Below are positions 12,909-62,341 of a stretch of 64,000 nt of DNA, one piece after another (position 1 is the stretch's first letter; each line of letters opens with the position of its first letter). This DNA comes from Eukaryota sp. GEM-RC1. Its lineage: Eukaryota. Below the pieces are notes generated by a model, which saw only the letters and a list, made by a program, of their open reading frames with translations, did no database searches and was not told where the DNA came from. The stretch spans positions 744,001 to 808,000 of the forward strand of contig JAUFOQ010000017.1 in the NCBI GenBank assembly GCA_040285855.1, given 5' to 3'. The translations under genes and the position numbers were made by a program.

Positions 12909-13697
12909 CTACTCAATATCATAATCCTTGTCTTTCACATCCATGTCATCAAAATACTGTGTCACTAAATCCACTTGCAACAACAAGTCCGAAAGTGATT
13001 CATCTTCATTATAATTCAGTGGAGTAAATGCAACAACATCATTCTCTTCCAGTAACTCAGCAATTCTCAAGTTCAAAGTTTTAAATTTTCCAGCAACCTG
13101 GGTGTCAAGGCGTCTAAAAAGGTTGACATTCCCAGGACTTATATCATTAAGCAGCTCCTTGTTCCCAACTAAGTCGCACTTAGTTAAGACGTTGACATGA
13201 GGGAGAGAGAACTGGTACATCGTTGACAAACACGCGAGGAAACCAGATATGAATCTAGCGGGATCTATCACAGTTATGGCTTCTAGACAATAGACTCCTA
13301 CTAGTGTGTATCTCCAGTTCTGGAAGGTCTGAGTGAGGTTCCTCATCATGGGCACGTTGGTGTACAATTCAACCTGTCCTGGACAATCAATTAAGAGGTA
13401 GTCATCGTCAAAGTCGCCAAGCTGTTCTTCTAGCCAGTCAAGATTGTTCAGAAGATATTCCATACAAAAAACGAGACCGCCATTAGGTCCATAGTCTAGT
13501 TCTTCCATGCAGTCTTCTAGGGAAATGAGCTGTCGTATATCAAAAGTGGGCGAATAGGGAAGATATTCTGCAGCAGGGTCTAAGTTGACAATGTGTAAAG
13601 AACGGCCAGTTGTACGGAAGTGCTCAGCCATTTGATGACAATATGTGCTCTTACCACTACCAGCTGGTCCAACAACAAATTGGGCTATTTTTCCCAT
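12909..13697 (-). CDS. GPN3: GPN-loop GTPase 3
   Basis: MGKIAQFVVGPAGSGKSTYC P-loop, VNLDPAAE, GPNGGL, DCPGQVELY, VLTKCDL; likely ATG at 13697. Confidence 0.9.
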   Translation of the reverse strand: MGKIAQFVVGPAGSGKSTYCHQMAEHFRTTGRSLHIVNLDPAAEYLPYSPTFDIRQLISLEDCMEELDYGPNGGLVFCMEYLLNNLDWLEEQLGDFDDDYLLIDCPGQVELYTNVPMMRNLTQTFQNWRYTLVGVYCLEAITVIDPARFISGFLACLSTMYQFSLPHVNVLTKCDLVGNKELLNDISPGNVNLFRRLDTQVAGKFKTLNLRIAELLEENDVVAFTPLNYNEDESLSDLLLQVDLVTQYFDDMDVKDKDYDIE

Positions 13698-14082
13698 GAG
13701 TAACTGGAAAGGAATTAGAGAAAATTCAGGTTTTCTCTTAATTTTATTACCAGACCCAATCTCTTGCACAAACATACATCTTAAACAATGGTTTCTATCT
13801 AGTCTACGGTTCTGAGCAAGACTTGAGCTTGTGATGTTAGTTTCCACACTTCCCAGCCATTTGATGACAATATGTGCTCTTACCACTACCAGCTGGTCCA
13901 ACAACAAATTGGGCTATTTTTCCCATGAGTAACTGGAAAGGAATTAGAGAAAATTCAGGTTTTCTCTTAATTTTATTACCAGACCCAATCTCTTGCACAA
14001 ACATACATCTTAAACAATGGTTTCTATCTGGTCTACGGTTCTGAGCAAGACTTGAGCTTGTGATGTTAGTTTCCACACTTCC
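13625..14082. repeat. 229-bp tandem duplication covering the GPN3 5' end and upstream region
   Basis: 13625-13853 is repeated at 13854-14082 with one visible substitution. Confidence 0.9.
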
Positions 14083-15097
14083 CTCATATACTCAAACACT
14101 TACCGTGTCATTCTTTCTTGCAGTTACACTTAAGTCTTCTGGGACCTGATCTTCCATTATCAGAATCATTTGCAATTCCATTCTTGGTTTTTTTGGACTA
14201 TCTAAAGTGAACTGCCTGGAAACGTATGTCTCACTTGATGGTGATCAGATCTTCCTGTTGAGCACAACGTTGTTTATGTTAGAAACTTCAAACAATGTCT
14301 TTCGTATCATTCATTCCCTCCTCCTGATTCTAGGATGGAATCGACTCCCCACAGTTCTGATAGATTGACAGTGTTTGAACTTTTACGATTGTAAAACAAA
14401 ACCATTTCTGTTTCAAATAAAGTTTTCTGTTCTCATTGCACTATTGCTCGACTACGGATAAGATGTGACTGTCAAACTCTGATTGTTCAAGAACAATATC
14501 GTTTGTGGGTGCCTCAATACAGTACTCAAATATAATCTCTAGAGATGGTCTTCCAATAATTCAAAAGTTTGAGCATCCATAAGATTAGCTGGAGGTATAT
14601 AATCGATTTCATCAAACATCTACAGGCATGAAGTTTATTGAAGTCAAAAGGTACATGATAAATCAATTTTATGGTACACGATAAGCTAGAGTCAAATCCG
14701 AAAGTGCACACCCCAACACGTGTTGGATATTGCATTCTTCTATGTCGCTTCAGTGAATTTGTATAAATTTCTACTCTTCTTGATAAAACTATATTGAATA
14801 AAGGTAGAAAATTCAAGTTTACTTAAATGTATGGATTATTGATGAGCTCTTCATGTTATCAGTTCTGGAATCATTGAAAATGAGTTGCAATTTATCAACT
14901 TGGTTCGGCTGTAACTTGCGTGAAAAATAGATGTGTTTTTCTGTCGGTTGATCTCAAGGTGAGTTATTCTGTTCGGCTGCTCAGAATTTATCCAACGCGT
15001 GTTGAATATTTTGCAACACCGTGTTGAACCGAATTATGTTGGTAATCTAAAATTACTAATCTCTCATACTTGCCAATCATAAAGAATGCAAAAAATG

Positions 15098-15169
15098 TGG
15101 GGCCACGAGGAATCGAACCACGATCTTGCAGATCTGGAATCTGATGCCCTACCATTGGACCATGGCCCC
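15098..15169 (-). tRNA. tRNA-Trp(CCA)
   Basis: Reverse complement GGGGCCA-TG-GTCC-AATGGTA-GGGC-A-TCAGA-TTCCAGA-TCTGC-AAGAT-CGTGG-TTCGATT-CCTCG-TGGCCCC-A. Confidence 0.92.
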
Positions 15170-15484
15170 ATTCTTGTGTTGCATATTTCAGCTCTGTTAT
15201 TATTGCTTCTAAGGCCCCATCTTGCAGATACACAATCTGACATGACTACATCTAGTATTCTGGTCATGTCCTCATATACTTTCTGTATTCTAAATCTTTG
15301 AATCGATTTGTTCAACGATTAATTCAATCAAGGTCCGTGGTAGTTAGACGAACACGTGCAGAACACGTGACGCGGCTTTAATCTTGTATCCAATATCTAT
15401 TAGATGATTTCTAATTGAATACTACAACCATAGCTACAGTCGTATAGACTACTGTAGAGTGTGGGAAAAGGATACCAAAATTCA

Positions 15485-15549
15485 AATTTTTAAATATATT
15501 TTTAATTACCTATATGTAACGTAAATAAATAAAAATATATTTAAAAATT
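15485..15549. repeat. perfect 20-bp inverted repeat
   Basis: AATTTTTAAATATATTTTTA (15485-15504) and its reverse complement (15530-15549). Confidence 0.85.
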
Positions 15550-15873
15550 CAAATTTTCAGGCGATTTGAGACATTTAGAGAGTCATCATGTGGACATGTA
15601 CTAGCATTGATTTCTCTGATTGATTAATGACTGGATATCAATTTAGCACATAATTGAGTGATTGTGATAGTACACGACAGAATTTCCAAAATTTCAAAAT
15701 TGATTGAACATTAAGTTATCAATTGTTTTGTGCATGTGTGTTTGTACTAATAGATGTACAGTCTCTGTGATCAACAGACAAGACACCTCTCAATACAAGG
15801 CAAGTGGCTCATCGTAATGTAATGACAATTGAACAAGATGACATGATGATGACAAGTTGTCATTCTTGTCATC

Positions 15874-15884
15874 ATATATAAATA
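15874..15884 (+). promoter_or_regulatory. TATA-box-like motif upstream of the Fanzor transcript
   Basis: ATATATAAATA about 25 nt before the first 117-bp repeat. Confidence 0.35.
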
Positions 15885-15905: not shown

Positions 15906-16223
15906 CTTTCACCCCCTTTGCACTCATCATAACCACAAGGTTATGCAAGCGACACCAAAGGTATTAAGTTACCTACGGTCGAGCTTCTGTTCCTCCTTTT
16001 CCTTCCCTAAGCTTCGTTGTTCTTTTCACCCCCTTTGCACTCATCATAACCACAAGGTTATGCAAGCGACACCAAAGGTATTAAGTTACCTACGGTCGAG
16101 CTTTTTCTTCCTCCTTTTCCTTCCCTAAGCTTCGTTGTTCTTTTCAACCCCTTTGCACTCATCAAAACCACAAGGTTATGCAAGCGACACCAAAGGTATT
16201 AAGTTACCCACGGTCGAGCTTCT
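15906..16223 (+). repeat. 117/118-bp direct tandem repeat, ~2.7 copies
   Basis: ATGCAAGCGACACC recurs at 15943, 16060 and 16178; internal hairpins CATAACC/GGTTATG and AGGTA/TACCT. Confidence 0.95.
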
Positions 16224-19200
16224 ATTATTTTTGCTATTCTGATAAATATGGTCTTCTGTTGTGTTCTGTTTTATTTTGTTGGATTTCCAGTTGTGATATT
16301 TTTGCATCGATCCCCATATCCCTTCATGTGTTAATAAATCAACAATCGTCACAGTTTTGTCATGACCTAACCACGGATGGAGACATAGAGTCCAATCCAG
16401 GACCTCCTCTTACAGATGACCTTAGAGATGAGCAACTGAGACCCGTTTTTGCACCAAACGTAGACAATATCGAGACGTTAAAGCCCAACGTCTGGGTTAA
16501 TGATGATGTCATCGACTTATACGGTGATTTTCTTACAAAAAGCAGCAAATGTTGTCAGTACTTTCCAATGAATGACATGCTTGGTGCTTCTGGTGTTTAT
16601 GATTTTCAACTATTGTTAAAAAATTCGAATACCTAATAAAATTAATGAATAATTGTGTTCCGAAGAAACGATTCATATTCATGCCAATCAACGATGGCCT
16701 TTTCGGTAAAACTCCGACTCATTGGACACTTCTAATTTGCGATATTAAGATCAGACGACTTTTTTCAATCGATTCAACGTATACTGAAGAGGAACACTTC
16801 AAACAACTGGCGAATACAATTCGAACTTCTCGCAATGAAACAGTAATCCAAAAATTACAGCAAGATTTGTTTAATGACGCACAGTATTTGTACATGGATA
16901 AACTAGTTGTAAAGCAAGAGCAAACTGAAAACGATTGTGGACCTTTTATTCTGATGTACATTCAAAAGTTTGTTACCTTAACAGACTCATCTATTGATTG
17001 TTCATCTATCGATTTTAAAGGAATTTTAACCAAACTTGTAATTAGCCAAGACTATGATGCTCTAAAAATGAGGAAAGAAGTTCTGACTCATATTATGACT
17101 ACTCAATCAGCAGAGAGGGCTGAACGTGCTAGAGAAATCTTAAACAAATACTTTTCAGTTCATTCGACACCTTCTCAACAACGTCGTAAGCCTAAAAAAC
17201 CAGATGCAAGAAAGAAAAAAGGTCCTAAAACTAAACAACCGGCCAAAAAAAGAAAGAAGACTGCTAATACTTCTGATTTATCTGAACCTTCTACACTGAT
17301 GTCATCTACTCATGAAATTCCAGACCCTAACAAACTGACAAAAACTCAATTACAAGAGGTTTCAGAAGCAATCAAATCGTTGTCATCTGAAGAATCGATT
17401 GCAGAAGAATGTGTCAATTGGTACTCTCGTCATTTGATGGACATATACAAAGTTGATTTCAATGCCTTTGTAACTTCTGGATCTATTCAATCATATTTAG
17501 TTGATGAAACCCGATCTCCCCACGAGTTTTTCATGAACAAGATGCTTGCGACAGATTCTAGATATCTTTTTCTTCCAATAAATGATGCAATGACTGGTTT
17601 ACATTGGGGTTTGATTGTAATTGATAAAAATGATCTACAAGTGATATTTCTCGATCCTCTTTATGATGCTGAAATTCACAGACAGGATGTTGATAAAAAT
17701 TTAAATGAAATTGACTCTTATTTGAATCAAGATATTTCAAAAATACATGAAATTCTTCATCAACTCCAGTTTCAGCTCATTATTGTCCCAGTGCCACAGA
17801 AACAAACAACAAATGATTGTGGAGTATACGTTCTTCAGTATATGCGCGGACTTATAGAACTTCTAACTTCAAACCAATTCACAGATCAATCTCTTCTCCA
17901 TGCTGCTGATAGAATGATACAACAACCTATCAATACTAGGGAGAGTAGACAAGAAATAAAAGTGTACCTTCAATCTCTACAACCTCCTACAAGTAGAAAC
18001 CGCATATCTGGACAAACCAAAATTAAGCGAACACGCAAATATCCGGTGAAAAAAACTGACAAAGTTGCTCAAAAAAAGTCAAAAAGGACTATACGTAAGC
18101 CCAGTGATTCTGATATAGGAGTTCCAAATGTGACTCATAAAGAATTTCTAAATAGTTTACCCGGTGAATTGTCTAACCGACAAAAGAGACGTCGTTTGAA
18201 GTTGCACATGATACAACAAGCACTTCAAGAAGCTGAAGAATTGTTTCAGGATTCTTTGATTCGTCCAAAGTTAGAGACCTTAGCTCCAATAGATTTGACA
18301 ACTCCTAAAATAAACGTTGCTGCTTGTGAGAAAACTGAAACCACAAAGACAACAGCTAAGAGTACAACAAAAGTTGGCAAATCCAAAAAGTTTACAACCA
18401 AACCAAAAGCAAGTGGTAAAACTAATGCTACCAAGAGTCTTAAACCTCCTAAGAAACAAATGATTGACTTTCATTGTAATTCTGAATTACCAGAAGACTC
18501 TAACTCTTGTTCAATATTGTCGTTTGATATTGAAACAAGAGAAGTTGATCAATTGCCTGTTAAGAAACTTACGAAGAGGTTGAATGAACAAAGACAAGAA
18601 CAAAATGAAGTTTTAAAAAACCAAAGTGATTCAGAAAGAGAAGTTTGGATTGAAAAGCATCAAGTGTTTATGATTTCTGGAGTTTTCGGTCATTTTATTA
18701 AGGATGAGTTTTACCTTCAAGAAAGCTTTGTTGCGACTTCAGAAGAATCAACTTTCTTTTCAGAGGGTGAAAATCCAACTGATTGCCATAGCCTTTTCTT
18801 CTTTGAAGACGAAAAACAGTTACTAGAGTTTTTGTCAACTATTTGACTGATAAAAATCCATCTGTTTTAAGTGGATTTAACATTACTAATTTTGATAATG
18901 TTGTTCTAGACAAAAGAATTGATGCATTTGGAATAGACTTTCCAGAACCAATGCTAGATGATACGACAAAATCACATTTGTCACCTTTATGGCAACGTGT
19001 TTGTACTGAATGGGCTGGTAGAACTGTATGTGATTCTTACCTCTATGCTAAACAATTCATTGCTACAAAATGTTCAAGGTCACTAAGTTGGTTTTTATTA
19101 AATGAATCTAAAGGACGTCTTCATGACAAATTTGAACACTTATTGCCTATTGATTGTGTTAGTAGACGACCTCAAGAAGTTCTAAACTATTGTTTCAAAG

Positions 19201-21362
19201 ACAGTGTACTAGCATTGAAGTTGTTTTTATTATTTCAATCAAATAAAATAGTTCGTCCCACTTTTGTAACACATAAGACTACACTGAAGTCTATTGTAAA
19301 ACATACAGGACTGGAATTATTGTTGAATTATTATGCTCTATTGGTTCATAAACTACGAATGCACACTTCTTATTGTTTAAAGCTGTTTTTATTGCATTTA
19401 AATAAGAATGAGCTTGAACTACCATTAATTACAAGGACAGAGGTTGAACACATTCAAACGTTGCTGAAGGAAATCTCTGCTGATCGTCATAAGATTAAAC
19501 TAAACAATGGAAATCCGACAATTAATGACGACTTGAGAAAATTTGTTACAAATCAATACAAACAAGTAATGATGGACAATGGTGGTATTCCAAATTTTCC
19601 AGCTGCATATTCGCCACGACTTATGGCAATGGTAGGTGAAACAATCAAAACAAATTTGAACACCAACATTAAAATGCGATATCCTCAGTACATTGACAAA
19701 TTTATTAATGTTTGGTTTGAAAAGAATAGTGTTGAAGAAGAAATGTCGAAAAAAGAAAAGTCTGTATTTCGTTGGAGATTGAGACAAGTAAAAGATGTTT
19801 TCCTTCAAAGGAATAGAAATGATATTCCAACGACCACTGAAGAAATACAGCAGTTTATTGAACAATGTGATACCATAATACTTGAAGATGACAGTGAGAA
19901 TAGCTTAAGTAGAGAAGATAAAATTGAACTTTTAGGGCAAAGCCACGACACTGTTCTAGAACTATTTGCAGATAGAGTTTGTATTGATATCCTCTTCCCA
20001 TCAACAATTAAAATTCAACAGTCAAATGGTGATTATGAAGACAAACAGATTGATTCTCTAATGAAAGCAGTACATGAACATCCACAATCGTTCATTAAAT
20101 CAGCCATACAAATATATAACTTTCTTGAAGAGGATGAAGCCAGTACTTACAATGTAATTCCAATTGTTCGACACGTGATTCCAGGCTTCTTTGGAAGTAG
20201 ATACACAAGGTCTTTGGGGAATATTACGTTCCACATTAACCAATCATCAGGTTAAAGAAAAACAAGGAAGATCTGAGTGGAATTCAATTGAGGAAATTAA
20301 GCACATGTCTCCTGCTGAACAAAATCAATTCTGGTCGTACTTTTTCAATTTTAATCGTCCATTTATAAAGAAAGGCTATAAGTTTAACAATTCTATTAAA
20401 ACTGATGGTTTCTCTGCTTGTGTTGAACTTACCAGAGAGGACTGTGTGGGAATGTCATTTAAACCAGATAGTGCAAAGTTCTCCAGTACTGATGAATATG
20501 TTCAAGACTATGATATTGAAGAGTTTACATTGAAAAGAAAAGTTTACATTGATCCTGGCAAGAACGATTTACTCTACTTCTGCTCAGAAAAAATAAGAAA
20601 GCCTGAAGATTTAGCCCGTGAAGTACGAAACAAAGAATACGAGTGGCTAAGATTGACAGAGACAGAATGGTCGAGATTGTCCAGAGTCCATCAAAAGTTT
20701 AGAAGGGGAAAGAAAAAAGAATTTATTCTCCGAGATGAAAAAACGGTTGAACAAGAAGAGTCAACATTGTCCAAAGAAAATTCAAAGTCGACCGTTTATG
20801 AAACCTTCTATGACTATGTGGGTTCCAAACTTACAGTTATTGAATCAACATTTGATTACTACTGTTTGATGATATGGCGCATTCAAAAATGCAAAGATAT
20901 GTCCATATTCAAAAAACAGAAAGTAAGTTGTTGAAAAATATGACTGCAAAAGGATGGAATAAGAATGACCGTGTATTGATGTTTGGTGACAATGGTAATA
21001 AGAGGCAGAACCTAAAACACCTCCGATCAAGTAGAGGTGTGATGTGGAGAAACTTCTTTAAGAGAAATGGTTACAATATTGTTCTCGTAGATGAGAGTTA
21101 CACATCTTCAAAGTGTCCCACTTGTTGGGGGCCAGTTAAAGTGTTTATGGAAGTTGACAATCCTAGACCCAAGACACAAGAAGAGAAGCCTATGGTGAAG
21201 TTACATGCGTTGTTGAGATGTCAGTCTGAGAAGTGCAGAGAAGAATGTGATGACAAAGACAAAGTGTGGAATCGTAACAAGTTAGCATGTATCAACATCA
21301 AAGCTATTGTGGAGCATCATTTGGAGCGGGGTCTAGGAGTTAGACCCAGTTATTTGTCATAG
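16178..21362 (+). CDS. polyprotein: 2A peptide - 2x Ulp1/SENP (C48) protease - PolB-type 3'-5' exonuclease - Fanzor1 (TnpB-like RuvC nuclease); four 1-nt frameshifts
   Basis: Five consecutive ORFs join by single-base shifts in short homopolymers (~16605, ~18830, ~20192, ~20888) into continuous motifs. 2A: DIESNPGP. Protease 1: WVNDDVID/HWTL/IDS/NDCG. Protease 2: FLPIN/HWGL/FLDP/NDCG. Exonuclease: FDIET/GFNITNFD/YCFKD. Fanzor1: P.F.EVDT..L, FNNSIKTDG, YIDPG, FGD, VDESYTSSKCPTC, LLRC...C, WNRN.LA..NI, RP.YL. Confidence 0.88.
16364..16405 (+). other. 2A (StopGo) ribosome-skipping peptide DLTTDGDIESNPGP
   Basis: Exact D(V/I)ExNPGP consensus in frame with ORF 16178. Confidence 0.9.
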
Positions 21363-21421
21363 TCATAGTCTTAATTTACTACGTGAATTCGTAGTTATCT
21401 GAGTATTATACTCACAAAGCT
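21302..21421 (+). ncRNA. candidate Fanzor omegaRNA scaffold
   Basis: Stem-loops GGGTCTA/TAGACCC (21329-21347), ACTACG/CGTAGT (21378-21395) and TGAGTA/TACTCA (21400-21414) overlap and follow the Fanzor stop, the position typical of TnpB/Fanzor omegaRNAs. Confidence 0.55.
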
Positions 21422-21425
21422 CTAT

Positions 21426-24400
21426 ATGACTCCCTCTTCACCATCTAGACAACACCTTCAGTCACTTCTTCGTCTTATAGAGAATGATCAAGTTCCTTCT
21501 CTAGATTTACGGTTCTATGATCTTTCTAGTTCATTTCTGTATAGTTTAAGTGGCTTATTACCTTCTGTCCAGAATCTTCTGACAATTGATCTTTGGAGTT
21601 GTTCAATTGGTGCTTCAGGGTTAGCCATACTTGCCCCTAGTTTACCCCCCTAATCTTGAATCTATTGATTTAGGGGATAATGGTGTTGGAGATTCCGGAT
21701 TGTCGACGTTACTCACATCTCTTACTTCGACCGCATCTCCACCTCCCCTACGTGCTCTTCTTCTTGCTCAAAATCACATAACAGACGCAGGTGCTGCCAC
21801 ATTAGCTGGTATTCTCAAAGCTGTACCTACTCTACGACGCCTGGACCTTCGTGATAACAGTGTTCATAATACAGGAGCCTCTCATTTGGCTACTGCTCTA
21901 GAAACTTCCAACCTCATCTATCTTTCACTCTTCCACAATCCAATTTCAGACGCGGGTGCCAAATCCCTCCTCGCCTCACTTCGACGTAACAACTCCCTCA
22001 AAACCCTTGATCTTCGTCTTACTCTAGTCCAAGACTCCTCCATACTAACCCAGATCTTTCAATCAACACTGGAGACCCAAAGGAGATCCCTTGATGAAAC
22101 TCCTTTTCTACGTCGAAAGTCAGCTTCTATTTCTCCAAAACGTGTTGACCGTCATCAAACTGAGCTCCTTTCTATAAGAAAGAATTCTTCTACTTCCAAG
22201 GGTTATGCTACCTTACCAAAACCTTTCAAAATTTCTTCAACGGACCATTCTCCATTGAATACAAAGAGTTTTGGAAAGAAAGTTGTTGATAGATTTGTTG
22301 AATTTGAGACTCCGCCGCATCGTCGTCTTGTCAAGGAACCGGAAGAATTACCAGAAACACCTGCAAATAGTTTTGCATATAACTTTTCTAATTCAGAAAC
22401 GGAAAGTGGTGACGTGGTGATGGTGAGAGATGACGACGTGATTGACTGGGATGATTCTCTGGAACAGTTAGTTGATACGGTTGAACATGAGCAAGTTCTT
22501 TCTGATGTTTTATCAAGAGAAGCTCAAGTTTCAGAAAAGGAAAGTGTTTTAGCTGAACGCGAACAACAATTGGCTGATGTTTTATCAAGAGAAGCTCAAG
22601 TTTCAGAAAAGGAAAGTGTTTTAGCTGAACGCGAACAACAATTGGCTGATGTTTTATCAAGAGAAGCTCAAGTTTCAGAAAAGGAAAGTGTTTTAGCTGA
22701 ACGCGAACAACAATTGGCTGATGTTTTATCAAGAGAAGCTCAAGTTTCAGAAAAGGAAAGTGTTTTAGCTGAACGCGAACAACAATTGGCTGATGTTTTA
22801 TCAAGAGAAGCTCAAGTTTCAGAAAAGGAAAGTGTTTTAGCTGAACGCGAACAACAATTGGCTGATGTTTTATCAAGAGAAGCTCAAGTTTTAGAATTGG
22901 AAAATCTATTTGCTGAACGCGAAGAATCACTTTCAGAAAAGGAATCGGATCTTTTATCAAGAGAAGCTCAAGTTTCAGAAAAGGAAAGTCTATTAGCTGA
23001 ACGGGAAGAATCACTTTCAGAAAAGGAAAGTTTAATATCTGAACGCGAAGAATCACTATCAGAAAAGGAATCAGATCTTTTATCAAGAGAAGCTCAAGTT
23101 TCAGAAAAGGAAAGTCTATTAGCTGAACGGGAAGAATCACTATCAGAAAGGAATCAGATCTCTTTTCAAGAGAAGCTCAAGTTTCAGAAAAGGAAAGTCT
23201 ATTAGCTGAACGGGAAGAATCACTATCAGAAAAGGAATCAGATCTCTTTTCAAGAGAAGCTCAAGTTTCAGAAAAGGAAAGTTTAATTTTTGGGCGTGAA
23301 GAATCACTATCAGAAAAGGAATCAGATCTTTTATCAAGAGAAGCTCAAGTTTCAGAAAAGGAAAGTCTATTAGCTGAACGGGAAGAATCACTTTCAGAAA
23401 AGGAATCAGATCTCCTGTCAAGAGAAGCTCAAGTTTCAGAAACGGAAAGTCTATTAGCTGAACGGGAAGAATCACTATCAGAAAAGGAATCAGATCTCCT
23501 GTCAAGAGAAGCTCAAGTTTCAGAAAAGGAAAGCCTATTTGCTGAACGGGAAGAATCACTATCAGAAAAGGAATCAGATCTCTTTTCAAGAGAAGCTCAA
23601 GTTTCAGAAAAGGAAAGTCTATTAGCTGAACGGGAAGAATCACTATCAGAAAAGGAATCAGATCTCTTTTCAAGAGAAGCTCAAGTTTCAGAAAAGGAAA
23701 GTTTAATTTTTGGGCGTGAAGAATCACTATCAGAAAAGGAATCAGATCTTTTATCAAGAGAAGCTCAAGTTTCAGAAAAGGAAAGTCTATTAGCTGAACG
23801 GGAAGAATCACTATCAGAAAAGGAATCAGATCTCTTTTCAAGAGAAGCTCAAGTTTCAGAAAAGGAAAGTCTATTAGCTGAACGGGAAGAATCACTATCA
23901 GAAAAGGAATCAGATCTCTTTTCAAGAGAAGCTCAAGTTTCAGAAAAGGAAAGTTTAATTTTTGGGCGTGAAGAATCACTATCAGAAAAGGAATCAGATC
24001 TTTTATCAAGAGAAGCTCAAGTTTCAGAAAAGGAAAGTCTATTAGCTGAACGGGAAGAATCACTTTCAGAAAAGGAATCAGATCTCCTGTCAAGAGAAGC
24101 TCAAGTTTCAGAAACGGAAAGTCTATTAGCTGAACGGGAAGAATCACTATCAGAAAAGGAAAGTTTAATTTTTGGGCGTGAAGAATTACTATCAGAAAAG
24201 GAATCAGATCTTTTATCAAGAGAAGCTCAAGTTTCAGAAAAGGAAAGTCTATTAGCTGAACGGGAAGAATCACTTTCAGAAAAGGAATCAGATCTCCTGT
24301 CAAGAGAAGCTCAAGTTTCAGAAACGGAAAGTCTATTAGCTGAACGGGAAGAATCACTATCAGAAAAGGAAAGTTTAATTTTTGGGCGTGAAGAATCACT

Positions 24401-26257
24401 ATCAGAAAAGGAATCAGATCTTTTATCAAGAGAAGCTCAAGTTTCAAAAAGGAAAGTCTATTAGCTGAACGGGAAGAATCACTATCAGAAAAGGAATCAG
24501 ATCTCCTGTCAAGAGAAGCTCAAGTTTCAGAAAAGGAAAGTCTATTAGCTGAACGGGAAGAATCACTATCAGAAAAGGAAAGTTTAATTTTTGGGCGTGA
24601 AGAATCACTATCAGAAAAGGAATCAGATCTTTTATCAAGAGAAGCTCAAGTTTCAGAAAAGGAAAGTCTATTAGCTGAACGGGAAGAATCACTATCAGAA
24701 AAGGAATCAGATCTCCTGTCAAGAGAAGCTCAAGTTTCAGAAAAGGAAAGTCTATTAGCTGAACGGGAAGAATCACTGTCAGAAAAGGAAAGTTTAATTT
24801 TTGGGCGTGAAGAATCACTATCAGAAAAGGAATCAGATCTTTTATCAAGAGAAGCTCAAGTTTCAGAAAAGGAAAGTCTATTAGCTGAACGGGAAGAATC
24901 ACTTTCAGAAAAGGAATCAGATCTCGTGTCAAGAGAAGCTCAAGTTTCAGAAAAGGAACATCTATTTGCTGAACGGGAAAAATCACTTGCTGTCACAGAA
25001 ACGTCACCACAATCAGAAACATGTTCTTGCCTCTATAACCAAGGACATGCTCATGCAGTAACTTTCATTCGAGATTCGATATCTGTTCATTTGGGCGGAA
25101 TTGCTCTGCAAAAGTATACTCTCATTAATGACCAACATATTCTGAATTCTCAACTGTCTTCCTTCGAATTCCAAATCAATGAGCTCAATAATCAATCACT
25201 CCAATTACAATCGTCCTTTGATGAACTCGCTGATCGGGAAAGTGATTTAGACGCACGTGAAGAAGATCTTAATACCAAGGAATTATATTTAATTGAACGA
25301 AGTCGATTTGTCGAGCAATGTAGAATTGAAACCGAAGAAGAACGTACACGTGTCATTTCTGAACGATCGTTCCTAGATGATTTCTCTAAGAAATTGGACG
25401 AGAAGGAGAACAGTATTAACTCTCATCGAAATTCTTGCAACCTTTTTTCTTACCTCTTTAAAATCTAGAGAAAACGCCATTAATGAAAAGTTGTCGTATT
25501 TATCTGATTTAAAAGATGAGGTTGCTGAAAGAGAAGCTGCGGTTACAAAGAAAGAAGAAGATGTTAATTCACTGTTTGTAAAGTTCAAAGATAATTACAA
25601 GAAGTTGTCTATACGTGATGAAAATCTACAGAGTTTTGCTGTCAAGTTGAAGTCACAATCACAATCACTACGTCAACGGTCAGAAATACTTATTCGTCGT
25701 GAGGAACAGGCTCAAATGTTCAAATGTGATGTTGAAACCAAATTTTCTGATGTTGTCAATAAGTACAATATGATATACTCGTTGTATGAATCTTTTAAAA
25801 ATTGTTGCTCTGAAATTCAAAATTTGAACAATTCCCAGATTTACATTTCGCTTCTTCAACCAAATTCTAGTTTCACGGACTTTGTTTCATCTTTTCATTC
25901 CTTCTTCATTAATCAAGCCTCCATTGCTGTAAATCTAACAGAATTGAAATCTAAATTGGAATTTGAACTTCAAAAGACTACCACTAAACAGTCAGAACTT
26001 GATTTGGCCGAGTCCAAAACAAGAAGTGTAATTGCTTCAGTTTTGATCTATCAAATCAACTTAAACAGGTCGACTCTTTCTATAATAGTTCTTATCAGGC
26101 TTCTCCATCAGTTGAGAATTCTCCTCGTGGCAATTTTGAAGATTCTAGCGGGGAATTTTTAAATTTTTCTTTTGATCTAGATGAACGGCAACAAGAACGA
26201 GAAGATTTTCTGAATGAAGTCGAGCAACTCAAAGCATTGCTTAAAAGTTGGCAGTGA
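21426..26257 (+). CDS. LRR + long coiled-coil repeat protein (frameshifted)
   Basis: N-terminal RI-like LRRs (LDLRDNSV...GA..LA.AL), then EREAQV/SEKES heptad repeats and a coiled-coil C-terminus ending LKSWQ-TGA at 26257. Confidence 0.8.
22502..24985 (+). repeat. coding minisatellite: 72-bp unit (about 5 copies), then a 42-bp-unit higher-order array
   Basis: DVLSREAQVSEKESVLAEREQQLA repeats, then SEKESDLLSREAQV / SEKESLLAEREESL / SEKESLIFGREESL units. Confidence 0.95.
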
Positions 26258-32767: not shown

Positions 32768-34376
32768 CTACTGAGTGAATGCTTCAACAGTACATGAAAG
32801 TCCAACAAAGTCTTTAGAAATCACGTCACTGGAAAGGAACCCCAGTAATGGAGGTGGAAGTTCCTGATCATCTTCGACTTCCCAGTTCAAAACAACGATA
32901 TTGGAAGCCAGACAAATTTGATTGATTGCTTTAGATTGATACTTTGCAAAGACTGTAACTCTAGGATTTGTTGGAGATATTGAGTTTGATAGAGTCTGAA
33001 TTGCAGCTTCAGCATTACCTTCTGTAATTGACAAATATTTGACAAGTGGAAGATCAAGACAAATAGCTATATCTTCAGGATCAGGGTTTGAATCATCAAC
33101 GTTTTTAAGAAAGTCAACAAGTGACTGGTCCAAAATCGAATCACCTGCAGTGATATTAAGCATGTCATTAGTAACCGAAAGAGATTTGATTATATCTACA
33201 GAAGATGCATCAATTGCCAGAACCAAGAGATTATAAACAAAAGTCAGACAATACATTGTATACTGTTTGGGCTCGAAAAAAGCGTAAACAAACTGAAGGC
33301 CGTCGTTCATGGTCAAAAGTGCAAGAAAGAGTCTAGTGCAAAAGTTGACAACAGATTTGGTAGTTAATTCACGATGTTCAAAGAAGAATGACGCGAGTTT
33401 GCTTGGTTTGAATGATGAAATGTAAATTGAGTTACAGTCACACTCAAGTATTTTAAATACAACGTATGAAATTGTACCGGCACATTCAGAAAGAATCTGA
33501 CCCAGAGAACAAACATCCAAAATGGTATCTGTTTCACTTATCAACTTATTTGGTTCATGGACATCGCAGCAATAACCTCGAGATTTACTTATCCAGGAAG
33601 CAAAAGAATCAAGACACGGAAGAAGAAGTGTGTCTTTGAAGGGGAAGAATGGGTTATGGGTATCGAAATGAAGTGAAGAATTCTTGGAAAAGAAAAGCAA
33701 GATTCACTTGTCCGTCGCGGAACTCTTCCAATGTTATTCGAAACTTTAAGGTAATAATTGAAGGCGATCCAAAAAGCATCTAGTGCTGCATATTCGATTT
33801 GCTTATTTGTCAATTTCTTAGAACTCCAATTGCTCATTGTAACTTTTTTCCCTTTAGTGCAAAGTAAAGTATAACCATGAGCGGAGAAGACAGACAATGG
33901 ATGAGAAATAGGTCCTAGTTCAGCCTTAGATTTTCCAACTTTTTGATGGTACATTCTTCCAATGGTCTTAAAGTAGTTCCCAATGTCATGAACAGGAGTA
34001 GGTGTAAGATCCCACATTTTCTTGAGCCTTATGATATCCTGGCTCATTCCCTTGAACACTTTCGTAATTGAAGGATTGGTTAAGAGATTTCGCAAGTCAA
34101 CGTTTAGATTTTGAACCTGATGGATCTGAATCACCATACACACAGAGGGAGTTCCGAGTTGAATAACATCCAACAAATGTTTCCTCCATTCACAGTCCAC
34201 AGCGATAAAGGGTTCATCGGAGGGAATTGTCTCCTGGAGCAAGCTAATGTAATCTGACACCATATTAGCATGTTCTTTGAGTGAGAACAAGTACACTGGA
34301 ATGGGGGAAGTTCTTCAACAAATCGAATAACTCTAAATGCTGAATCTGGACAATTGGTGGGTTGCTTGGTCAACAC
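32768..34376 (-). CDS. WRN/EXD-type DEDDy 3'-5' exonuclease domain protein (frameshifted; ends approximate)
   Basis: IAVDCEW, IQLGT, DI..L, MSNWS.K.L...QIEYAALDA. Confidence 0.8.
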
Positions 34377-40249: not shown

Positions 40250-43200
40250 ATGTTTTCTCTAACTGCTTTCCTCATTTTTTTGCCTTCTTTACAGTGTTGC
40301 TGCATTTAATCCTTGCAATTATTGTTCTGATGATACTTCAGATGATGATACACTAGTTCTTCCTCTCATTTTCGAAACTCAGGATCCATCTACCTCAAAC
40401 CTTGTTCTCTGTAATTCTGTTTATGATATTAAAGTCAACACCTTCAGAATCACGGAAAGTCTCCATGTTTGTGCAGCATCAGTAGAACTCATTATTAGCA
40501 GATACAGTTCTGGCGATTATATGATGTGGTCGTCTTCCCTGAGTGCTTTCTTATATCTAGGAAATTCTGACACAGACAATCCCTTTGTTATCCATTCCAA
40601 TGGCAATTCACTAATCTTGCACGGAGCCTTTCCACACTCATTATCACTTACATTCTTGTCTGCTGTAGAAATCAATTTCGACTTTGATCTTTCACATTTC
40701 TCCCTTCAAGTTTTCTTTCTAAAACAAGTCACTATATCTGAGACTCTGACCACCCGTTCCGCTTCTTTCCATGACGTTGTCCTCAAAGGCTCTGGTGAAT
40801 GGCGTTTTTCCAACTACGATATCGCCATAGGAGCTTCACCCAGTATTAGTCACTTTACTGGTCAACCATGTAGAATTGTACATATGAACTCTGCTGATTT
40901 CCACAGATTCCGTGTCCAGTGTCCACTTCTAATATCAGGTACTGGGACTTTAACTGTTAAGGACACTGTTAGCTTTGCTAACCCATCAGATGAACCAAAT
41001 GTATATACCCTTCAAATGGATGGGTCTTCTAATATAAATTTTCCTGCTAGCGTTGTTACGACGTCTAACTTTAAAATTTTTATTAATAGTGTCAACAAGT
41101 TTACATTTACTGGAACTAGCGATAATATTGTAGATCAAGTCAGAATTGAATCAGGAACTTTAGATATTCAATCCAAATTAGTTACATCTTCGTTAGTTTT
41201 TGGTGGCGGAACTATTGTTGGCGATACACTTGAAGTTCGAAATACTCTTGAATCGTCTAGTGTAGATTCTTTAGAGTGTGCACAGTTCAGAGCAACTTCT
41301 CTTGTTCTTTCCTTTTCCAGTAATTTAATTTACGACTATGTTATTGATTTCTCACCTAAGTCTTCACTTGAAATTGCTTCTGGTTTTCAAGTTACATTTA
41401 ATAACCCACAAAATCAGTTTAATTCTGATTTCTTTGATTCATCAACTCTTTCAGTAAAAGGAACTGCAATTATGTCAAACTCTTTTTCTCATATTACTAA
41501 TGTTGAGATATTGGGTGGTAAAATTACTTGTATTGGAGTGGCTGCTTGTCCTGTTCGTCTAGTTTTTACTAGTGGAACAGTGCATGGTGTCTTCCGCCTC
41601 TATTCGCTGATTTACAACGATAACAGTCAAAGCATAACCTTGCATCCTGATACTGAACTTCTTCTTTGGACTTCTGTTGAATCATTTCATTTATATTGTG
41701 AAGCAGCTTGTACAGTATCAGTTGAATCTGAACAGGAAGTAGAATTAACTGGGGATGTCATGATTGAACTGAATGAAGATCATGGTGCTGTAACCTTTGA
41801 TGTTTGTGGGGATCTAGAAATTAATCTGGATAACACTTTAGTGTTGGACAAGCTTTTAGTTAGTGGTACAATTGATATTCAAAGTGATTTACTAATTGTT
41901 AATGATGTGACCCTAGATGAAGGAACAATTACCGGAAATTCACTGGAAATTAAAAATGAAATTTCGTCTTTGGGTTCGTCGGTCTTTTCAGCATTACTTC
42001 TTGTTATTTCAAATACTTTGAATTATAATTCTGTCATTGAGTTCTCTTCCCATTCTTCCTTGGAAATTGCTCATGGTGTTACAGTTACATTTGATAATCC
42101 AAATGAGCAGTTCACTGCCCAGTACTTTGCTTTAACATCTCTTTTAGTAAGGGGAAACGTCATCATGTCTCAATCTTTTTCTCATACTACTAATATTGAA
42201 CTAATGGGTGGTAAAATTACTTGTACCGTGGGTTCTTGTCCTGTTCACTTTGTTGTTCGTAGTGGGACTTTGGATGGTAATTTTTTTATGTACTCATTGA
42301 TTTACACCGATTTTGGTGAAGAACAGTCCACTTTATATTTATCAGATAATTCTGTATTAAATCTCAAAGCTAATCAATTTGTTTCCCTAACTGTTGAATG
42401 TGAATCATTGTGTACTCTTAAAGTTCCAGAAGAATCTACTGTAGAGTTTGTTGATTTTGTTGAGTTTTTGTCTGATTCGACGGATTCTATCTTTATTAAT
42501 GAGGGAATGGCGACTTTTGAGGTAAGTACGTTTAATTCAGAACTAAAATTTGAAAATCATAACGATTTAACTTTCGTCTCCTCCAGTTCAATAAGTTTAG
42601 AGAATTTTAATTTTGTTAAAGGAACTGTTTCTGTAGAATCTGAGTCGTCTTTGCTACTTACTGATTTTACTTGGATTAAAGGAGACTTTTCAGGAGATGT
42701 CACAGTTTCAAACTCCATTACTGCTGTTGGTGCTGAAGTTCGTAGTTTTACTGATGGTACTTTTACCTTGTCTGTTTCTACAGTAGAATCCATGGCTGTT
42801 ACTTTTTCCACATCATCAGTCTTGAAAATTCCCGTAAACAAAAACGTCATCTTTTCCAATTCTATTCAACAGTTCAACGCTGAGTTGTTTAAAGGTCTTC
42901 TAATAGTAGAAGGATCCCTAACTCTACAAGATGATGACGGAGACATCTCCACCATTACGAATTTAGAAGTTCAAAGCACGGGAGACCTGCATTGTGATGA
43001 CTGTGAAATTGATTCATTGACTTGGTCTAAGGGAAAACTTTCTGGACAATTATCACTTTGTTCTGATATAGCTTATGGTGATGATAAGTCTAATTTATAT
43101 ATATTGGATAATTCTCAGCTAACTCTCAAAGCTGTTCAGTTTGTTTCTCTAACAGTTGAGTGTAAATCAATGTGTACTCTTAAAGTTCCAGAAGAATCTA

Positions 43201-46200
43201 CTGTAGAGTTTACTGACTCTGTTCAATTTTTATCTGATTCTACGGCTTCTGTTTTTATTAATGAGGGAATAACAACTTTTGATGTCAGTATCCATACATT
43301 TACTTCAGAATTGATGTTTGAGAATTATAATGATCTAACTTTCGCATCTTCCAGTTCATTTAGTATTAAAGATTTCAATTTTGTTAAAGGAACTGTTACT
43401 GTGGTGCCTGACTCTTCTTTGCTACTTACTGATTTTACTTGGATTAAAGGAGACTTTTCAGGAGATGTCACTGTTTCAAACTCCATTACTGCTGTTGGTG
43501 CTGAAGTTCGTAGTTTTACTGATGGTACTTTTACCTTGTCTGTTTCTACAGTAGAATCCATGGCTGTTACTTTTCCACACTATCAGTCTTGAAAATTCCC
43601 GTAAACAACAACGTCATCTTTTCCAACTCTATTCAACAGTTCAACGCTGAGTTGTTTAAAGGTCTTCTAATATTAGAAGGATCCCTAACTCTACAAGATG
43701 ATGACGGTGACGTCTCCACCATCAAGAATTTAAAAGTTCACAATTCGCGTTACCTGCATTGTGATGACTGTGAAATTGATTCATTGACCTGGTCAAAAGG
43801 AGAGTTTTCTGGACAATTATCACTTTGTTCTGATATAATTTATGCTGGTGAAGAGTCGAATTTATATTTATTAGATAATGCTGAATTAAATCTCAAAGCT
43901 AATCAATTTGTTGCCCTAACTGTTGAGTGTAAATCAATGTGTACTCTTAAAGTTCCAGAAGAATCTACTGTGGAGTTTATTGATTCTGTTCAATTTTTAT
44001 CTGATTCTACGGATTCTATCTTTATTAATGATGGAATAACAACTTTTGATGTAAATTCGAATGGGTTTAACTCAGAATTGATGTTTGAAAATCATAATGA
44101 TTTAACCTTCACATCTTCCAGTTCATTTAGTATTAAAGATTTCAATTTTGTTAAAGGAACTGTTACTGTGGTTCCTGACTCTTCTTTACTACTTACTGAT
44201 TTTACTTGGATTGAAGGAGACTTTTCAGGAGATATCACTGTTTCAAACTCCATTACTGCTGTTGGTGCTGAAGTTCGTAGTTTTACTGATGGTACTTTTA
44301 CCTGGTCTGTTTCTACAGTAGAATCCATGACTGTTACTTTTCCACACCATCAGTCCTCAAAATTCCCGTAAACAAAAACGTCATCTTTTCCAACTCTATT
44401 CAACAGTTCAACGCTGAGTTGTTTAAAGGTCTTCTAATAGTAGAAGGATCCCTAACTCTACAAGATAATGAGGGAGACTTCTCCACCGTTAAGAATTTAG
44501 AAGTTCAAAGTTCGGGACACCTACATTGTGATGATTGTGAAATTGATTCATTGGCTTGGTCTAAAGGAGAACTTTCTGGACAAATATCACTTTGTTCTGA
44601 TATAGTTTATGGTGCTGATAAGTCTAATCTGTATTTATCAACTAATTCTCAGCTAACTCTCAAAGCTGTTCAATTTGTTTCTCTAACAGTTGAGTGTAAA
44701 TCAACGTGTACCCTTAAAGTTCCAGAAGAATCTACTGTAGAGTTTGTTGATTCCGTTGAATTTTTGTCTGATTCTACGGATTCTATCTTTATTAATGAGG
44801 GAATGGCGACTTTTGAGGTAAGTACGTTTAATTCAGAACTAAAATTTGAAAATCATAATGGTTTAACTTTCTTCTCCTCCAGTTCAATAAGTTTAGAGAA
44901 TTTTAATTTTGTTAAAGGAACTGTTTCTGTAGAATCTGACTCGTCTTTGCTACTTACTGATTTTACTTGGATTAAAGGAGACTTTTCAGGAGATATCACG
45001 GTTTCAAACTCCATTACTGCTGTTGGTGCTGAAATTCGTAGATTTACTGATGGCACTTTTACTTTTTCTGTTTCTACAGAAGATTCCATGGTTGTGTCTT
45101 TTACCACTTCATCAGTCTTCAAAATTCCCGTAAACAAAAACGTCATCTTTTCAAACTCTATTCAACAATTCAACGATGAGTTGTTTAAAGGTCTTCTAAT
45201 AGTAGAAGGATCCCTAACTCTACAAGATGATGGCGGTGACGTCTCCACCATTAAGAATTTAGAAGTTCAAAGTTCGGGACACCTACATTGTGATGATTGT
45301 GAAATTGATTCATTGGCTTGGTCTAACGGAAAACTTTCTGGACAAATATCACTTTGTTCTGATATAATTTATTCTGGTGAACAGTCGAATTTATATTTAT
45401 CAGACAATGCTGAATTAAATCTCAAAGCCAATCAATTTGTTGCCCTAATTGTTGAATGTGAATCATTGTGCACCCTTAAAGTTCCAGAAGAATCTACTGT
45501 AAAGTTTATTGATTCTGTTCAATTTTTGTCTGATTCTCTGGATTCTATCTTTATTAATGAGGGAATGACCACTTTTGATGTAAATGCGAATGCGTTTAAC
45601 TCAGTATTGAAGTTTGAAAATCATAATGGTTTAACTTTCGTCTCATCCAGTTCATTTAGTATTAAAGATTTTAATTTTGTTAAAGGAACTGTTTCTGTAG
45701 AATCTGACTCTTCTTTGCTACTTACTGATTTTACTTGGATTAAAGGAGATTTTTCAGGAGATGTCACTGTTTCAAACTCCATTACTGCTGTTGGTGCTGA
45801 AGTTCGTCGATTTACTGACGGCACTTTTACTTTGTCTGATTCCACAATAGATTCCATGGTTGTTACTTTTACCACGTCATCAATCTTGAAAGTTTGCATC
45901 ACTAAAAACGTCATCTTTTCCAATTCTATTCACCAGTTCAACACTGAGTTGTTTAAAGGTCTTCTAATAGTAGAAGGATCCCTAACTCTACAAGATGATG
46001 ACGGACACATCTCCACCATCAAGAATTTAAAAGTTCAAAATTCGGGATACCTGCATTGTGATGACTGTGAAATTAATTCATTGACTTGGTCTAAAGGAGA
46101 ATTGTCTGGAAAATTATCACTTTGTTCTGATATAATTTATGGTAATGATAAGTCTAATTTATATTTATCAACTAATTCTCAGCTAACTCTCAAAGCTGTT

Positions 46201-49200
46201 CAATTTGTTGGTCTAATTGTTGAATGTGAATCAATGTGTACTCTTAAAGTTCCAGAAGAATCTACTGTAGAGTTTGCTAATTCTGTTGAATTTCTGTCTG
46301 ATTCTACAGATTCTATCTTTATTAATGATGGAATAACAACTTTTGATGTAAATTTGAATGGGTTTAACTCAGAATTGATGTTTGAAAATCATAATGGTTT
46401 AACCTTCACATCTTCCAGTTTATTTAGTATTAAAGACTTTAATTTTGTTAAAGGAACTGTTACTGTGGTGCCTGACTCTTCTTTACTACTTACTGATTTT
46501 ACTTGGATTGAAGGAGACTTTTCAGGTGATGTCACTGTTTCAAACTCCATTACTGCTGTTGGTGCTGAAGTTCGTAGTTTTATTGATGGTACTTTTACTT
46601 TGTCTGATTCCACAATAGATTCCATGGTTGTTACTTTTGCCACATCAGCAGTCTTGAAAGTTTGCATCACTAAAAACGTCATCTTTTCAAATTCTATTCA
46701 GCAGTTCAACGATGAGTTGTTTAAAGGTCTTCTAATAGTAGAAGGATCCATAACTCTACAAGATGATGAGGGAGACATCTCCACCATTAAGAATTTAGAA
46801 GTTCAAAGCACGGGACACCTGCATTGTGATGACTGTGAAATTGATTCATTGACCTGGTCTAAAGGAGAACTTTCTGGACAATTATCACTTTGTTCTGATA
46901 TAATTTATGCTGGTGAAGAACAGTCCACTTTATATTTATTAGATAATGCTGAATTAAATCTCAAAGCTAATCAATTTGTTGCCCTGACTGTTGAATGTAA
47001 ATCAATGTGTACTCTTAAAGTGCCAGAAGAATCTACTGTAGAGTTTGTTGATTTTGTTGAGTTTTTATCTGATTCTAAGGATGCAATTTTTATTAATAAG
47101 GGAATAACCACTTTTAATTTAAATATTGATGTGATTATTTCAGAAGTGAAGTTTGAAAATCATAATGAATTGACTTTCGTTTCTTCCAGTTCATTCGGTA
47201 TCCAAAATTTTAATTTTGTTGAAGGAATTGTTACTGTTACAGGAGTATCCCTATTAGTTGAGCATTTTGTTTGGAATAATGGAGACTTTTCTGGAAACGT
47301 CACCATCTCAAAGTCAATTAATGCCGTTAATGGTGAAGTCTTAAGATATTCTAATGGATTTTTTGATCTACTCGTTGATGATGTTGCTTCATTGAAGATT
47401 AATTTTCTGCCATCATCAGTCCTAAGGATTCCAGTTGACCACACCTCATCTTTCTCTAAATCATCAGAGCAGTTCAATCGTGATCTTTTTCATGGTGAAT
47501 TGCAAGTTTTTGGAAGTTTAACTCTTACTGACATCTCTAATTTGTATTCATTCATCAAATTATTGAAAATCGATTCGGGGAAAGTTGTCTCCTATTGTGA
47601 CTTGGAAATTTCTCTTCTTGTAAGCATTGGGGGGAGTTTCAAGTCATCTGGCAACTCACCAGTTTCAGTTGGATTTGCAGAACTTTGGTATTCTACGCTT
47701 CTTGGAAATGAGTTTACTATAACAAATATAACTTCTTTTAATGGCAGTTTCTTCTCTAATATCACGTTACTTGACGTCGGTGATTTTTGGGGAGATACCA
47801 CTATTTATGATCATGCTACTCTGACCAACAATGGAACACTTTTTCAACGTTCTCCAATTATTTCAAATTCTACTAAACCCATTGTTAACAATAATTTCTA
47901 TCAGTCTGCCAGTTCTTTAAATCTATTTCAACCAAATGATGAACCAGTATTTCCAAATATTCAATATCTCATTTTTCAAAGTAATGACAAGTTAGTGACT
48001 ATTGATTGGCAACTCCAGTCTTTGGAAACTTCTACCGTGTATTGTATTTCAGATGTTCTTTTCACTGCAACATTATCAATTGACGGAAAACTTGACGTCT
48101 TTTCAAATTTGTACTTGTCTTTCAATGCTGACGCTGTCTTGACTGAAACAAGTGCGACTTCTTTTATAACTCCATAATTGAAAGTAATAGCTCATTGACT
48201 TTATATGGCAATTGTTCCTTTCTAAATTCTTCTCTGCTAGGATCAGGCGTGTTCAAGTTTAAGTCTTCATCTGTCGTGAATCAGTCTTCTTCTCTTTCTT
48301 TACTTTCACCTTTTATTATTGACGTTGAGGAGTTGGCTTACTTTATTTTACATACTATTTCTCTTCATAACAGTCAGCGTCTTTTAACTGATTGTGAATT
48401 TGAAGAATTTTACTGGTTTGGAGGTTCTTTGTTTGGTTCATCTTCTAATGAAATTCTTATCTCTCATATGTTTCTGGAAGGTAGTGACTTTTCGCTATTG
48501 ATTTCTGATCTATTGATTTTTGTTAATAACTTCAGTAGTAGTGATTGTAATGTTCAGCTCAACAATTCGAACGTTACACTACTGGAAAGTAGTCTCTTTG
48601 TTTGTCAATCAGAATTGATTGATTGTGACGGTCGTTGGACTTCTGAAGAAAACGGTCATTTGGTTAACTGTGGACATGTTCTATTCCAACAATTCAATTA
48701 TTTCCTGATTCAAACCACTTCACTGTCAAGTAGTGGTTACGTGGAGATTGATCAAGTGTCACAAATTGATTTTGAAACAGTTACTCATTTTTCTGGTAAT
48801 TGTACTATTAGAAAATCTAATGTTTTCTTCCAGTCTTTGATGGCAGAGGGATCAACATTGTGCTTTGATGATTCAATTATTTCTTCTAATTCCGCTGTTT
48901 TCTGCAATTCTTCTGTCAGCTCTTATACTAACATAACTCTTGAATATGGTATATTTGAATTTACTCTGTCAATTGTCTCTAGTCCATCAATTTTTTCAGA
49001 AATTCAAGTTTAATTTTCTCCTCTAATGAGCTGTATTTACCAATAATTTCCGTTATTGCTTCCAAACATTACGTGTGATGATTGTCGTTTTTCCTCTCTT
49101 TCATTTGAAAATACATCGGAACTTTTTGGCAACTTCACTTTTTCTTCAAATATTTGTAGTTTAAACTCTTCTGTTCTTCGGTTTTCTGATGGTGTATCTT

Positions 49201-62140: not shown

Positions 62141-62341
62141 AAGATTTAATTTAGGGGTCTTATGTTAGAAACTCGAATTTAATGATGCTGAAACACTACA
62201 TTTCCATCACAGTGCAATTCTCTGTACCAATATCTCTGATAGTACTCACCGAAGAAGCCAATCAAACATTCTTCAGTTCTTGGGGATAAACTGCATTCAA
62301 TCGGAGAAGGTAGGTTTTACTATTTCTTCCTCAGTTATATA

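Follow-up and report, generated by a model that had tools for sequence, protein, structure and literature searches.

What kind of protein is encoded where five overlapping frames end in a Fanzor1-like RNA-guided nuclease, and what might such a protein do? The question is raised by a locus in a 64,000-nt stretch of DNA from Eukaryota sp. GEM-RC1 (GCA_040285855.1, contig JAUFOQ010000017.1, positions 744,001-808,000, forward strand), the whole of which we call the window and whose own numbering is used below. The window has a G+C content of about 35% and is eukaryotic DNA, with Pfam matches identifying host genes for a GPN-type ATP_bind_1 protein, a leucine-rich repeat (LRR) protein, a DEAH helicase and an alpha-mannosidase. 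An original prediction, made from the letters of the window, had proposed five same-strand open reading frames (ORFs) joined by 1-nt shifts, and all five are present on the + strand, at 16085-16636, 16603-18846, 18807-20255, 20179-20934 and 20856-21362. Most likely they are one gene which, when joined, encodes 1,728 amino acids (aa) from the Met at 16178, comprising a leader, a 2A motif, two Ulp1 proteases, a basic linker, a PolB-type exonuclease and a Fanzor1. The proposal of a single ORF of about 1,720 aa is thus supported, both by intact single-ORF relatives and by paralogues that read through the breaks. The features of the gene are:

15907..16221, + strand: tandem repeat, 2.7 copies of a 117/118-nt unit, each with the ATG of MQATPKVLSY
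16178..16405, + strand: 75-aa leader with a hydrophobic stretch and a 2A/StopGo-like DIESNPG/P at its end; paralogue P0050 has this Met and this motif too
16457..16965, + strand: Ulp1/SENP domain 1, His in THW at 16720 and Cys in NDCG at 16936; spans break 1
16618..16623, + strand: break 1, an A-run one base short; P0050 reads through
17389..17886, + strand: Ulp1/SENP domain 2, His in LHW at 17602 and Cys in NDCG at 17818; best Peptidase_C48 stretch
17990..18515, + strand: Lys/Arg-rich linker (24% K+R), with short motifs RQKRR..AEEL and P-x-ID-x-x-TPK common to subfamilies
18517..19240, + strand: PolB-type (DEDDy) 3'-5' exonuclease, ExoI FDIET at 18520, ExoII GFNITNFD at 18873, ExoIII YCFKD at 19188; spans break 2
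18829..18833, + strand: break 2, a T-run one base short; P0050 reads through
19254..21362, + strand: Fanzor1, RuvC-I D in IDPG at 20548, RuvC-II E in DESYTS at 21090, zinc finger CPTC at 21114 and C at 21219, RuvC-III N in WNRN at 21267; spans breaks 3 and 4
20193..20194, + strand: break 3, one extra base (GG); paralogue P0041 and other relatives read through
20885..20889, + strand: break 4, an A-run one base short; same break in P0041

The fusions depend on few of these breaks. ExoII, ExoIII and the N-terminal half of the Fanzor lie in a single unbroken frame, the third, and the joining of exonuclease to Fanzor is therefore independent of any frame correction. Both Ulp1 catalytic sets and ExoI likewise share a single frame.

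Solved Fanzor1 proteins were the top matches of frames 3, 4 and 5 (SpuFz1, E 2e-5; PpFz1, E 1e-3; and PpFz1, E 3e-19, respectively). The homology spans the REC, WED, RuvC and TNB regions, and Pfam finds a Cas12f1-like_TNB domain in frame 5. A Fanzor1 motif has been described as D-X(125-275)-[TS][TS]-XX-C4 zinc finger-X(5-50)-RD (PMC3627910). The window protein carries it as IDPG, YTSS, CPTC..C and WNR, with an N as the final residue, a known active variant. The RuvC-II Glu of Fanzor1s stands about six residues ahead of the zinc finger (PMC13565253), as it does in the window protein: DESYTSSKCPTC. Motifs, matches to solved structures and grouping among Fanzor1 sequences (see below) together uphold the proposed Fanzor1 identity of the C-terminal ~700 aa. 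The predicted motif order, which included 'WNR.', stands in that the motif is present, but the canonical Asp is replaced by Asn. This RuvC-III residue is N in all 28 family models with the motif, whereas 101 of the 106 stand-alone hits have D. Active GtFz1 has a D-E-N triad, and D606N raised the activity of SpuFz1 (PMC11423790). Since the window protein retains the D of RuvC-I and the E of RuvC-II, and the Asn is that of active GtFz1 and of the SpuFz1 mutant, the nuclease is probably alive, to judge from its residues; WNRN as the mark of a dead nuclease was considered and rejected on the same data.

Ahead of the Fanzor, frame 3 matches DNA_pol_B_exo1 (PF03104; E 2e-6, above the Pfam cut-off). 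All of the DEDDy motifs are present (ExoI DxE, ExoII NxxxFD, ExoIII YxxxD), and the proofreading exonuclease that had been predicted is thus found by domain match and by residues. The solved polymerase closest to the family profile is Pol delta, at E 7e-10 versus 4e-5 for the next family. Polymerase matches are confined to profile positions 53-245; no palm, fingers or thumb was found after the exonuclease in the profile search, and the Fanzor comes directly next. Stand-alone Fanzor1s begin to match at profile position ~240-253, where the exonuclease match ends (~242), which suggests that the exonuclease is tightly tethered to the Fanzor N-terminus. A host ORF elsewhere in the window (33589-34314, - strand) has a DNA_pol_A_exo1 3'-5' exonuclease domain unrelated to that of the element.

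The N-terminal half contains both of the Ulp1/SENP proteases that had been proposed. Frame 2 includes two Peptidase_C48 stretches (Pfam, E 7e-23), and both domains retain the catalytic His, Asp, Gln and Cys (THW..D..QEQTENDCG and LHW..D..QKQTTNDCG). Residues 94-263 of P0050 match SENP5 (E 2e-5) and yeast Ulp1. In the linker, PIDLTTPK at 18286-18309 is kept in relatives as P-x-I-D-x-x-TPK; we take it to resemble a SUMO-interacting motif beside a CDK site. The predicted 2A peptide is likewise present, as DIESNPGP at 16382-16405, which fits the class A pattern D(V/I)ExNPGP and is likely to be self-releasing, judging by that fit. Eight related models likewise have in-frame N-terminal repeats, with peptide units 22, 30 or 31 aa long.

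The 2A-like motif has three matches in the window versus none in 100 shuffles. A decayed element at 61400-63200 on the - strand, presumably similar to Ty3/Gypsy, has reverse transcriptase (RT)-like sequence (FGLKN..FQ, YIDD; RVT_1 E 0.009, below the cut-off) and RNase H-like pieces, with 2A-like motifs ahead of it at 62999-63021 and 62343-62365. The presence of 2A motifs in this element too suggests that the device is common to mobile elements of the host.

Are the four breaks sequencing errors or real lesions? P0050, a 956-aa model that is 94% identical to the window copy (91-96% when compared piece by piece) and has the same start Met, crosses breaks 1 and 2 with zero residues lost. P0041 crosses break 3, yet it stops at break 4 exactly as the window copy does; break 4 is read through by 29 of the 30 models carrying its motif. 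As had been predicted, similar shifts break host genes: the DEAH helicase of the window changes frame at DHX8 residue 205/206 with zero residues lost, and further long host ORFs overlap in a similar manner. Because paralogues and relatives read through, and host genes are broken alike, sequencing error is the likely cause of all four breaks. Programmed frameshifting was rejected for breaks 1-3, where paralogues read through, and keeps a slight probability for break 4. Two points tell against sequencing error. The break shared with P0041 could be an inherited real lesion or a recoding site, and the relatives are predicted gene models, in which false introns can bridge breaks. One might hold instead that the window copy is a decaying pseudogene whose breaks are all real, with functional copies elsewhere. 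Four breaks within 5.2 kb, one of them also in P0041, would agree with this, as would the lack in the window copy of three exonuclease residues present in P0041 and other relatives. We nevertheless consider it quite improbable: three of the breaks are homopolymer shortfalls, the conserved helicase and other long host ORFs show such breaks too, and the aligned path has no in-frame stop and every catalytic motif intact.

The gene belongs to a family found in free-living anaerobic protists. A search for longer relatives returned five proteins, all from 'Eukaryota sp. TZLM3-RCL', a free-living soda-lake metamonad (PMC11316075, in whose accessible text Fanzor is not mentioned). The clusters of these five hold 41 members, of which 39 were listed; with seven more proteins from TZLM3-RCL and six from Eukaryota sp. 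GEM-RC1, the set examined came to 53 (46 TZLM3-RCL, six GEM-RC1 and the window's own). TZLM3-RCL has at least 46 gene models on many contigs, forming several young dispersed subfamilies with identities mostly of 90-99% within a subfamily, as is seen with interspersed elements that have been active recently. Models P0001 (1,846 aa) and P0007 (1,905 aa) each contain the whole order 2A-Ulp1-Ulp1-exonuclease-Fanzor, with identities to the window of ~44% in frame 3 and 51-53% in frames 4-5. The 2A-like motif, ExoI and RuvC-III occur together in 11 of the 53 proteins, and ExoIII and RuvC-I together in 24; the others are partial.

The number of Ulp1 domains differs by subfamily (0, 1 or 2), and in models that include the N-terminus a 2A-like motif always comes first. 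The acidic residues of ExoI-III are kept across subfamilies with exonucleases as little as 26% identical, with ExoIII appearing degenerate in P0166. P0011 and P0020 have cores that are 98% identical and leaders that are 30% identical, while P0011 and P0166 have leaders 83% identical and exonucleases 26% identical; these comparisons indicate that leaders are swapped between subfamilies. This is a multi-copy mobile family in which exonuclease and Fanzor behind a 2A motif are constant, and Ulp1 domains are optional (0-2) and exchangeable. The 'multi-effector' architecture originally proposed is real as a fusion, but it is neither fixed nor one-off.

When 1.84 billion representatives were searched with a profile, 3,146 matched at E<=0.001. 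The best 150 of these were examined, and a weaker-scoring fusion may exist elsewhere; among the 148 new hits they included, six have the exonuclease (E <=4e-24), one being the window's own, and the next best scored E 0.069. In a FastTree phylogeny of the C-terminal region (midpoint root, stand-alone hits alongside, without a Fanzor2 or TnpB outgroup), 11 of 12 family-like rows form one group with a support of 100 and a stem of 0.99, although five of these rows are fragments in which an exonuclease is not seen. The twelfth, P0102, falls outside and had been labelled family-like solely for its N residue.

Ordered by locus tag, the 46 TZLM3-RCL models are clustered, with 12 of 45 gaps of <=25 genes (p ~0.004-0.009 versus random); eight of those 12 gaps are of 17-25 genes, a range picked after seeing the data. 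In P0037, P0018, P0003 and P0017 the core is joined to a repeated ORF (31-aa tandem repeats, CCHC knuckle) or to a near-identical DEAH helicase, the latter at two TZLM3-RCL loci. Such models may point to a favoured target or to a composite element that extends beyond the core.

Around the gene, the following candidate signals were found:

15477..15557, unstranded: AT-rich inverted repeat with 32-nt arms, 91% complementary; fold z -4.4, 0 of 200 shuffles; may lie in the left end or the flank
15875..15882, + strand: TATA-like box ~25-30 nt ahead of the repeat array, a putative promoter from its sequence
21290..21425, + strand: putative right end and omegaRNA scaffold, with hairpins that span the stop codon and follow it; fold z -2.87, 1 of 200 shuffles

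The element is bounded by a tRNA-Trp gene (15097-15169) and by the LRR gene, which starts with the Met at 21426. For the window copy alone, the final 140 nt gave a better fold than did 199 of 200 shuffles, and the candidate omegaRNA region has no Rfam match; as far as folding can tell, these 3' hairpins might be the omegaRNA scaffold. No terminal inverted repeats were detected, the longest inverted match between the end regions being 7 nt (shuffles 6-11). At the window copy we found no target duplication above chance, no poly(A) or simple repeat on the 3' side and no RT domain, and domain scans of the gene revealed no HUH domain. The copy shows neither the terminal repeats and DDE transposase of a TIR DNA transposon (Mariner, MuDR or Spu-1 type) nor the marks of a non-LTR retrotransposon; a non-autonomous Helitron/HUH form is conceivable.

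The tRNA-Trp gene is on the opposite strand, ~740 nt upstream of the repeat array, and the window has further tRNA genes at 12438 (tRNA-Asn) and 5618 (tRNA-Gly). Downstream, the LRR protein (21426-26162) has a very long 84-nt tandem repeat of 23.5 copies that encodes a coiled-coil-like tract and is broken by several frame changes. From 40263 to 56244, ~16 kb of same-strand overlapping ORFs probably encode a single surface protein, giant, repetitive and rich in Cys, that frame changes interrupt. An exact 229-nt tandem duplication at 13625-14083 lies in the ATP_bind_1 (GPN-type) gene, within its 5' portion, and is either real or an assembly artefact.

What, then, would the fused exonuclease do? 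The reading we favour, and to which we give about an even chance, is that of a selfish multi-copy element whose Fanzor1 is fused to a Pol delta-like exonuclease that would trim the cut so that the element is copied into an empty site (homing). From Fanzor1 biology, the right end with ~15 nt of flank would be made into an omegaRNA, which would guide the cut at an element-free copy of the element's own site. OMEGA nucleases have been read as homing endonucleases that restore the element at the empty site (PMC13565253), and known Fanzor1s place their non-target-strand cut 14-17 nt away from the target-adjacent motif (TAM; PMC10432273). With the element inserted immediately behind the TAM, the 3' end on the TAM side would bear a 14-17-nt tail without a match in the template. 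This non-homologous tail would have to go before repair synthesis could finish, and the exonuclease tethered at the Fanzor N-terminus could remove it. Paques and Haber are reported to have found in 1997 that in yeast, short 3' tails lacking homology are removed by Pol delta proofreading. Through the 2A motif the enzyme would be released from a leader that is variable, rich in repeats and fast-changing, and the Ulp1 domains, as optional helpers, would act on repair or silencing proteins modified by SUMO or ubiquitin-like proteins. Movement to new loci might use a transposase in trans or ectopic repair.

Several points weigh against homing. The case is made from sequence, with activity, expression, guide, TAM and empty sites predicted, and the DNA of one copy was the basis for the ends and for target duplication. 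No transposase was detected by domain scans in the gene or the window, and homing alone would not explain spread to many loci or new insertions. Fusions of TREX1, TREX2 and T5 impaired Fanzor2 editing in human cells (PMC12923547). An AlphaFold2 model from a 12-row alignment (predicted local distance difference test 44.6, predicted template modelling score 0.30) was too poor to place the exonuclease and was not used. A bolder version, which we think unlikely, is a transposase-free polyprotein that would find its target by RNA, cut it, trim it with its Pol delta-type exonuclease, remove SUMO and copy itself to empty alleles and new loci by host repair alone. If true, it would amount to a 'cut-trim-copy' gene drive of natural origin, complete in itself, whose swappable cargo is set free by a 2A peptide.

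The same pair of domains would also serve a destructive cut, in which TREX2-like chewing of the ends forms an addiction or defence module against element-free alleles, rival elements or invading DNA, and nothing is copied. Resection that begins homologous repair has a polarity opposite to that of a 3'-5' exonuclease, which speaks for destruction, and guides differing from copy to copy would provide a broad repertoire (PMC10432273). A proofreading-type domain, however, fits short frayed or single-stranded 3' ends, and young dispersed subfamilies with leader swapping resemble selfish spread rather than a domesticated defence locus; we think this explanation unlikely also. Nor do we find it probable, though it deserves some weight, that the gene forms the 3' module of an element that is composite and larger, or mobilised through RNA, with Fanzor opening the target, the exonuclease dressing the primer end or trimming the omegaRNA, and a reverse transcriptase or helicase/knuckle partner acting in trans. 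For it speak the 2A motifs known from ORFs of long interspersed nuclear elements (LINEs; bioRxiv 10.64898/2026.06.17.732966), the two similar motifs of the decayed RT/RNase H element in the window, the 5' tandem repeats that differ between subfamilies, and the linkage of the core to the repeated ORF or the identical DEAH helicase in P0003, P0017, P0018 and P0037. The homing reading with 3' tail trimming would be put to a sharp, cheap test by an exonuclease kept fused across deeply diverged subfamilies, given the short tail between TAM and cut.

Among known systems, the solved Fanzor1s are nearest: SpuFz1 (8gkh), PpFz1 (9cf0) and GtFz1 (9cer) match the C-terminal ~700 aa over its full length (E 3e-45, 2e-40 and 5e-10). 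They likewise have a Glu six residues ahead of the zinc finger and a 3'-terminal gene with a structured tail, and GtFz1 shares the D-E-N triad; but they stand alone, at 400-700 aa (PMC10432273), whereas the window Fanzor is fused. Spu-1 also lacks a transposase, but has 30-nt terminal inverted repeats where the window element has none. Stand-alone Fanzor1s of giant viruses and protists (DUF8286/PF26935), relatives among the 3,146 hits, mostly have D rather than N at RuvC-III. The nearest Atlas clusters are mostly Nucleocytoviricota, with a score of 0.76, which is a lead only. Ginger1 and Mutator/MULE transposons also carry Ulp1/C48 as accessory cargo of an element protein (PMC2836005); in those elements it goes with a DDE transposase, either in one protein or next to it, whereas in the window it is fused to an RNA-guided nuclease, without a transposase. 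D(V/I)ExNPGP stands near the N-terminus of a mobile-element protein in LINE ORF1p/ORF2p also (bioRxiv 10.64898/2026.06.17.732966), but the window 2A is not followed by an RT or APE endonuclease. The main texts of two 2A surveys, as accessible, mention neither Fanzor nor Ulp1 (PMC12338488, bioRxiv 2026.06.17.732966).

No natural fusion of an exonuclease or Ulp1 to Fanzor appears in the accessible main texts of PMC10530073, PMC3627910, PMC6338049, PMC10432273, PMC10711439, PMC13565253, PMC10691335, PMC12338488, bioRxiv 2026.06.17.732966 and bioRxiv 2026.06.03.729735. Literature searches found none by title or by the opening of the abstract; supplementary Fanzor and 2A lists, Repbase and subscription papers could contain one. 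The suggestion that the architecture had not been described thus holds within the literature searched, and the sequences point to a new, conserved architecture of a multi-copy Fanzor1 family. The biological role of Fanzors is stated as unknown in PMC10432273, and a dispersed, apparently young element without a visible transposase raises the question of how it moves. A further parallel is artificial: TREX2-Cas9 and TREX/T5-Fanzor2 likewise unite an RNA-guided nuclease and an exonuclease in one chain, but they were engineered, aimed at indels and impaired MmeFz2 (PMC12923547). The window fusion, by contrast, is natural and PolB-derived, and would be a naturally evolved nuclease-exonuclease fusion where engineered Fanzor2 fusions failed.

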